Shown here: piece after piece, positions 353 to 868 of the stretch
How positions within the stretch are numbered: position 1 is the stretch's first letter
How the letters are laid out: each line of letters starts with the position of its first letter
Virus record (IMG/VR): IMGVR_UViG_2606217104_000012
Direction: 5' to 3' (one strand)
Origin: a virus
Taxonomy: Duplodnaviria > Heunggongvirae > Uroviricota > Caudoviricetes
Length of the DNA: 26,763 nt
The notes under the pieces: generated by a model
Seen by the model: the letters and a program-made list of their open reading frames with translations, nothing else
Told to the model about the DNA's origin: nothing
Databases searched by the model: none
Made by a program: the position numbers and the translations under genes

Positions 353-450
353 GAACAGTATTTTGATGAATTGCCAAGGTTACAATGGCACAAATGCGGC
401 ACAGGAGGAAACGTGGTGTATTTAAATATGGGGTAACTCTTTGATTTTAA

Positions 451-496
451 TGGTGCCGATAATAGGAGTCGAACCTACGACCTTCGCATTACGAAT
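451..496 (-). other. 46-nt 3' fragment of tRNA-Thr(CGU) (thrW-like: anticodon loop through CCA end), not an intact tRNA; putative prophage att core (attR-type partial duplicate)
   Basis: Minus strand reads ATTCGTAATGCGAAGGTCGTAGGTTCGACTCCTATTATCGGCACCA, matching the thrW 3' part as I recall it (T-arm GGTTCGACTCC, acceptor 3' strand, CCA). No complementary 5' acceptor strand or D-arm is present upstream. Confidence 0.7.
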
Positions 497-868
497 TATA
501 AGAATCCGTTTCTAATTCAAAGCATTACCCCATCAACACTGCGCTCACACGTCCCATCACATCAAAACATGTAAAGCCTTGCAAGCCATTGTGAGGCCTT
601 ATGTGTCTCAGTTTTGTCCCAACTTGTATTACGACTTGCATAGCCAATGAAGATAAATGTAGTGAATGCCTGTTATGAGCGATCAGCAGACGTTCATAAT
701 TGAGTCGACATAAATCTTGCGAACAATGCCGTGTGGCAATCAGCTGGGAACAGTCATGTCAGCCCTCTAAAACCACGTATAGCGAGGGGCGTAGGTCAGA
801 ATAACTCGCCTACTTTCACACTTGAACGATATAATTGCTGTGGGACAAAAGATAAAGGATGACATGAA

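Follow-up and report, generated by a model that had tools for sequence, protein, structure and literature searches.

The tRNA gene thrW, which encodes tRNA-Thr(CGU) in E. coli K-12, is the insertion site of a well-described group of temperate phages, and a 46-bp sequence from its 3' end has been published as the core of SfI, SfII, SfV, SfX and P22 (PMC3636060; also PMC3851460). For the attP of P22, reviews list IHF sites by which recombination is stimulated, although it can proceed without them (PMC4111918 Table 1; PMC7581858). In the orientation used here, the order in phages of the Sf/P22 type is xis, int, the int stop codon (equivalent to positions 434-436 below), 14 bp, the 46-bp core, an arm, gtrA-gtrB-gtrX and the tail fibre genes, so that the DNA at 497-622 of the sequence studied here corresponds to the cargo-side arm of attP. 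The core-type binding sites of Int flank an overlap of 6-8 bp and are contained within about 21-30 bp.

Here, we examine such a site near the beginning of the window, that is, the whole stretch of 26,763 nucleotides of the Caudoviricetes record IMGVR_UViG_2606217104_000012. An initial annotation, made from the letters alone, had noted a 46-bp fragment of a tRNA-Thr gene between imperfect inverted repeats. Based on the comparisons described below, 383-622 is very probably the attR (P-O-B') of a thrW-inserted prophage whose integrase is of the SfV/P22 family, and the inverted repeat probably corresponds to two IHF-type sites.

The att core and the tRNA-Thr fragment

The features that define the core are as follows.

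451-496, minus strand: common core of attR, the 3' 46 nt of thrW (positions 31-76), assigned from the thrW match and PMC3636060
467-489: equivalent of the 23-bp core of P22 attP, which by annotation holds the Int core-type sites and the crossover, assigned from the annotated cores

The reverse complement of 451-496, ATTCGTAATGCGAAGGTCGTAGGTTCGACTCCTATTATCGGCACCA, is identical to positions 31-76 of K-12 thrW (46/46) as well as to the attP core of the phage family, and it occurs only once in the whole window. The initial annotation had read a 3' fragment of tRNA-Thr on the minus strand from 496 to 451, which is borne out, the copy of the final 46 nt of thrW being exact, and its remark that CP4-6 also uses thrW is correct. 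Its further proposal, that the fragment is an att core at the tRNA-distal end of a prophage integrated in thrW, is supported for a prophage of the SfV/P22 family, with the far end seen through proxy genomes. The 5' half of the tRNA, whose presence next to the fragment would have made the gene intact, was looked for and is absent: no tRNA was detected by ARAGORN anywhere in the window, neither a tRNA nor any other family was matched by Rfam (E<=1) at the att site, and the 30 nt on the 5' side of the fragment are identical to thrW positions 1-30 at only 7/30 positions. In the annotation of phage L, an 81-bp "tRNA-like fragment" is listed, which led to the idea that the phage-side arm of the inverted repeat (514-533) is a decayed 5' half of the tRNA. 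This idea was rejected on the same 7/30 identity, an acceptor stem that is unpaired and the absence of any ARAGORN prediction.

The annotated 23-bp cores of P22 and phage L both match exactly at 467-489, and the annotated 25-bp site of ES18 maps to 465-489. Since these annotated cores are inside the tRNA fragment, the Int core-type sites and the crossover should also lie within the fragment, and not in the inverted repeat.

The phage-side arm

The following features are found to the right of the core.

497-622, plus strand: phage P arm of attR, the gtr-side arm of an SfV-type attP, assigned from the SfV alignment
551-556 and 616-621, plus strand: GTCCCA repeats, candidate Int arm-type sites of the SfV/P22 type, assigned from conservation
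605-610, plus strand: GTCTCA repeat, a further candidate Int arm-type site of the same type, assigned from conservation
576-597: conserved hairpin in the phage arm

The window can be matched base by base with SfV from 497 to about 622, and this arm shows identities of 94-97% to the attP arms of SfV, SfI, SfII and SfIV and of about 83% to those of P22-like phages. One flank of the core is thus homologous to the cargo (gtr)-side attP arm of the SfV/P22 family. The GTCCCA and GTCTCA repeats are kept in P22, L, ES18, 2G7b and eps34. The hairpin at 576-597 shares bases with the motif TTGCN6TTGT, which is similar to a CII-binding site, and the equivalent stretch in the records of eps34 and phage L has been annotated as a terminator or as CII sites.

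The chromosomal flank and the integrase relic

On the other side of the core, the DNA is of chromosomal origin, and the features below can be distinguished.

353-382: intergenic DNA of the chromosome, from the interval that separates the yagP pseudogene from thrW, with identical copies in K-12, KSC1031 and FDAARGOS_1277
383-450, plus strand: B' flank of attR, read as a fossil P' arm, a 68-bp relic of an int 3' end of the HK542/mEp043 type that includes a 14-bp spacer
387-392 and 398-403, plus strand: two GGCACA repeats, candidate arm-type sites of an HK542-type Int in the fossil P' arm

The identity with K-12, KSC1031 and FDAARGOS_1277 extends over the whole of 353-450, near the yagP pseudogene and paoDCBA, and the genes flanking 353-382 are paoABCD and a LysR pseudogene. 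In K-12, the copy of 353-450 adjoins the distal thrW fragment at the end of CP4-6 (NC_000913.3, ~297.2 kb), a fragment that is named ptwF in the GenBank annotation of HK542. In DY612, the same flank is located directly beside an intact thrW in the order paoD, yagP', flank, thrW, proA, which represents an unoccupied attB, and this empty site is 100% identical to window 420-496. In other words, where the site is empty, it is this flank that comes after an intact thrW. The possibility that the locus is an un-integrated attP was also considered and rejected, because its left flank is chromosomal.

The chromosomal flank has a phage history of its own. Compared with the last 55 nt of HK542 int and the 14-bp spacer, 383-450 is identical at 60/69 positions with one gap (E 2e-18), the phages mEp043, mEpX2 and ECP1 match it at 88-91%, and the homology to int ends abruptly at 383. 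The equivalent of the stop codon is found at 434-436, and a 1-nt deletion breaks the reading frame: the Int protein of HK542 ends in ...NGTNTAQEENVVYLNAR followed by the stop, while the flank would read ...TNTAQEE, the 1-nt deletion, and then VVYLNMG and a stop in another frame. The stretch 383-450 thus shows both the sudden end of homology and the broken frame of a relic of a phage integrase 3' end. In a tblastn search with the Int proteins of SfV and KSC1031, nothing significant was obtained against the flank, because the relic is too short; the homology is seen at the nucleotide level against HK542. Judged from these alignments, the DNA that normally borders thrW in E. coli, at empty sites as well, is the fossil P' arm of an older phage of the HK542 type; this is a small curiosity, of which the GenBank notes of HK542 and mEp043 already contain a hint. 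Where SfV, P22, 2G7b and eps34 have GTCCCA, both attP arms of HK542 carry GGCACA/GTCACA repeats, and by this covariation the GGCACA repeats are probably Int arm-type sites.

Integrase 3' ends of the SfV or HK542 type are often found after thrW across Enterobacterales, and at many loci the downstream sequence belongs to one of a few recurring classes, namely these two and at least three others, among them the conserved flanks TTTCAACTTCCTCAAACGTCCG and TCCTACCTATTTTAACGTCTCC. Partial copies of thrW occur as 45/46-nt or 49-nt repeats according to the class of the flank. The recurring classes suggest that thrW may be shared by several distinct integrase families. In addition, in the record of phage phi458 (OP434518.1, 44143-44364 and neighbouring positions), the chromosomal thrW-distal flank is joined to an SfV-type arm, and this "complete phage genome" includes the integrase relic and DNA towards yagP, which suggests either that the record derives from a prophage and its ends are misplaced, or that excision was aberrant.

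The inverted repeat and the IHF-type sites

The inverted repeat and the two sites within it are located as follows.

428-447: left arm of the inverted repeat, on the chromosomal side
514-533: right arm of the inverted repeat, on the phage side
434-446, minus strand: perfect IHF consensus AATCAAAGAGTTA, the H'-type site of the fossil P' arm (consensus WATCAANNNNTTR)
515-527, plus strand: IHF-like site ATTCAAAGCATTA within the right arm, one mismatch from the consensus

In a repeat search, the two 20-nt arms proved to be complementary at 17/20 positions (85%) and 66 nt apart, so the inverted repeat that had been reported around the fragment is real and its coordinates were right to within 1-3 nt. 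None of 1000 dinucleotide-preserving shuffles of 380-580 reached 17/20, the best 20-nt repeat in the shuffles having a mean of 12.8 and an sd of 0.8. The arms also pair when the region is folded as single-stranded DNA (z = -3.2), a result that only restates the repeat. A role as hairpin or terminator was rejected, given that the loop exceeds 60 nt, that the repeat exists only in lysogens and that the pairing merely reflects the repeat.

Then, could the repeat be a pair of Int core-type binding sites bracketing the crossover, as the initial annotation had proposed? The arms are indeed roughly symmetric about the annotated core, with the centre of the repeat at 480.5 and that of the core at 478. 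However, they are 66 bp apart, compared with the span of about 21-30 bp expected for such sites, and the annotated core of P22, L and ES18, with that of P22 at 467-489, lies wholly inside the tRNA fragment. Moreover, the right arm is absent from attB, where the 5' half of thrW occupies its place in both DY612 and K-12, and it is missing in attL as well, while in genuine attPs the inverted repeat is weak, at 10-13/18 in general, 10-11/18 in SfV and SfI and 12/18 in the reconstructed attP of the phage itself. The arms thus neither directly flank an overlap of 6-8 bp nor occur as a pair in both attP and attB. The proposal is consequently barely credible. Nor does the repeat recur at the other att site, a check that had been suggested along with it: the attL of a near-identical prophage keeps only the H' half, with a best value of 9/18. 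The other suggestion, a "recombination scar", holds insofar as the left arm does lie in an older integrase relic, but the repeat as a whole is better explained by two IHF-type sites.

Within the 26.7 kb, the IHF consensus WATCAANNNNTTR is matched perfectly at the left site, 434-446, and nowhere else, and a site that is perfect or has one mismatch occurs at the same offset after the end of the tRNA in all the 10 attP sequences compared (10/10). The right site, with its one mismatch, is a borderline match. Its offset (+64) is occupied with no more than one mismatch in SfV, SfI and 2G7b only; P22, ES18 and eps34 depart from the consensus there at more than one position, although they keep the TAAnTCAA...TACC block. 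The predicted IHF sites are centred at -38 and +43 from the centre of the core (478), and they are inverted, each turning its WATCAA end towards the core. When the lambda attP was scanned, H2 was placed at -41 and H' at +39, again inverted, with the 3' end of int and the arm-type sites on the H' side. Inverted IHF-type sites about 40 bp on either side of the crossover are thus present here, the left of them at the offset conserved in 10/10 attPs. For P22, the putative positions of H and H' are those suggested by the present alignment. The inverted repeat is best read as two IHF-type bending sites, one of which was left by an older phage, with the binding of IHF predicted from the consensus matches and their spacing.

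A different reading denies the repeat any binding function, and regards it as a chance product of an AT-rich phage arm and an AT-rich flank in which only the left H'-type consensus, a dead relic, is meaningful. One arm is derived from a chromosomal relic and the other from the resident phage, and therefore the repeat could not be selected as a unit. The low values in the reconstructed attP and in SfV and SfI point in the same direction, and the same phage arm beside a different flank (locus L062) forms no such repeat. Against it stand the failure of every shuffle to reach 17/20, the IHF-consensus elements present in both arms with the H2/H' geometry of lambda, and the TAAnTCAA...TACC block of the right arm, which is conserved across attP arms serving different tRNA cores. 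We regard chance as a rather doubtful explanation of the whole repeat, though the strong value of 17/20 is in part due to the accidental combination of this flank with this arm.

Integration and the far end of the prophage

According to the reading as two IHF-type sites in an attR, the locus would have formed as follows. The attP of the phage would carry a copy of the last 46 nt of thrW, and the tyrosine recombinase Int would exchange strands inside this copy, presumably within the P22-type core at 467-489. Integration would consequently rebuild an intact thrW next to int (attL, outside the window) and leave the 46-nt tail of the tRNA gene between the cargo-side arm (497-622) and the old chromosomal flank (353-450). 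At the far end, beyond the window, DUF968, the early genes, xis, int and the intact thrW would follow, and then TTTAAATCAATAAGTTAC and proA. The inverted repeat would arise when the two IHF-type sites meet on either side of the core, and would not be selected as a unit. During excision, Int, Xis and IHF would be expected to assemble on the P arm (497-622), using the GTCCCA repeats and 515-527, which would serve as the core-proximal IHF-like site of that arm, while the left IHF site (434-446) and the GGCACA repeats would probably be leftovers for which the resident phage has no need.

It is also conceivable, but highly improbable, that the attR of every SfV-type lysogen amounts to a nearly complete hybrid attP, composed of the SfV P arm, the core and the HK542 P' arm, to which IHF or a heterologous Int of the HK542 type might bind. 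If this were true, excision could become more or less efficient, the site could be favoured as a landing pad in tandem lysogeny, or a cruciform could extrude there and promote the loss of the core.

The window stops in the DUF968 gene, about 11 kb short of the left junction (attL) that is expected. Near-identical prophages, with about 97.5% identity over 79-84% of the window, are present in the complete E. coli genomes KSC1031 and A27, where the order is proA, intact thrW, integrase, excisionase, early genes, lysis, terminase, head, tail, acyltransferase, the 46-bp fragment and yagP'. In KSC1031, the direct repeat shared by attL and attR consists of the exact 46 bp and 15/18 further matches past the CCA end. 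With KSC1031 and A27 as proxies, thrW and int may be placed at the far end in the source genome too. At least 80% of window 420-640 is present in 1139/5426 complete E. coli genomes.

The beginning of the window is occupied by another mobile element.

1-352, minus strand: end of an IS3-family element with orfA at 2-298 (Pfam HTH_Tnp_1, 1.6e-12), inserted in the chromosomal flank, outside the att site

We take this IS element to be IS629-like. It is located 98 bp from the att core, and in other E. coli genomes that lack the insertion the chromosomal sequence continues from about 350. The exact junction between IS and flank gave 0 matches in 185,579 species-representative genomes, and none in the complete E. 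coli genomes searched, so it may be a strain-specific marker. The proximity of the IS, a junction that is seen in no species-representative genome and a window that stops in the DUF968 gene before the early region would all fit an orphan attR, that is, a prophage that has lost its int/thrW end or has been rearranged, leaving the fragment with no working partner. This is nevertheless improbable, as the morphogenesis, lysis and cargo genes are continuous with those of the complete prophages in KSC1031 and A27 at about 97.5% identity, and the IS lies outside both the core and the P arm.

Cargo and other genes of the prophage

Next to the att site, and further along the prophage, the following genes and signals were identified.

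869-3535, plus strand: cargo at the position of gtrABC in Sf phages (and P22), next to the att site
869-1441: 190-aa ORF without a Pfam or PADLOC match
2456-3505: 349-aa protein with an Acyl_transf_3 domain, candidate O-antigen acetyltransferase
3504-3535: strong bidirectional terminator
24167-24688, plus strand: KwaA (PADLOC 1.9e-83)
24694-25578, plus strand: KwaB (PADLOC 2.3e-150; Pfam PF16162)

The only matches in the Rfam search (E<=1) concern a terminator look-alike at 3470-3590, where the terminator at 3504-3535 is mis-scored as a Leu leader, below threshold. Beyond the cargo, the SfV-like module of tail, head and terminase genes is found. KwaA and KwaB make up a complete Kiwa anti-phage pair, with the DUF968/Q region on one side, the lysis genes on the other and its neighbours on the opposite strand, and the pair is also present in the prophage of E. 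coli A27.

For the annotation of this element, it is useful that one boundary of the prophage is fixed at 451-496 and that its integration system can be named. The element carries an O-antigen-type acyltransferase at the usual locus of serotype conversion, and the Kiwa pair in addition. In E. coli, even the "chromosomal" side of the thrW site derives from a phage, an example of how one tRNA hotspot is used repeatedly. The current understanding of site-specific recombination is unchanged by these results.

Comparison with known systems

Bacteriophage lambda provides the general architecture. Its attP also has two inverted IHF consensus sites about 40 bp on either side of the core, although the sequences and the core are unrelated to those described here; moreover, lambda requires IHF, whereas P22 is reported to be only stimulated by it (PMC4111918, PMC7581858).

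At the same tRNA gene, the cryptic prophage CP4-6 of K-12 is bounded by thrW and its distal fragment and has the identical flank 353-450. However, its repeat is 49 nt long, compared with 46 here, its prophage-side arm is unrelated, and its intF is located at the distal end. The lambdoid phages HK542, mEp043 and mEpX2, whose attP has been annotated as similar to thrW and ptwF, have an int end and spacer that are 87-91% identical to 383-450, and the HK542-type phages share the GGCACA repeats and the IHF site with the chromosomal flank. In these phages the stretch is an intact reading frame in a working attP, whereas in the chromosome it is truncated and frameshifted.

The attP of the Salmonella phage P22 has the exact core at 467-489, arms that are about 83% identical, GTCCCA repeats on both arms and a perfect IHF consensus 4 nt past the CCA end of the tRNA, but the IHF-like site of its P arm diverges, being AGTCAACAACATA in P22 versus ATTCAAAGCATTA here.

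The closest relatives are the serotype-converting Shigella flexneri phages SfI, SfII, SfIV, SfV and SfX, which integrate at thrW with the identical 46-bp core and, in SfI, SfII, SfIV and SfV, with a cargo-side arm that is 94-97% identical. The gene order is the same, from int and xis through the tail fibre and cargo genes to att, and the module of tail, head and terminase genes here is SfV-like. In place of gtrABC, however, the prophage described here carries the 190-aa ORF and the Acyl_transf_3 acyltransferase, and the host DNA beside it is that of E. coli paoD-yagP, into which an IS element is inserted. The site is, in short, a textbook att junction of the lambda type, which belongs to a well-described phage family at a well-known tRNA hotspot and is of a kind already known, and its difference from the Sf phages is confined to the cargo and the host flank.
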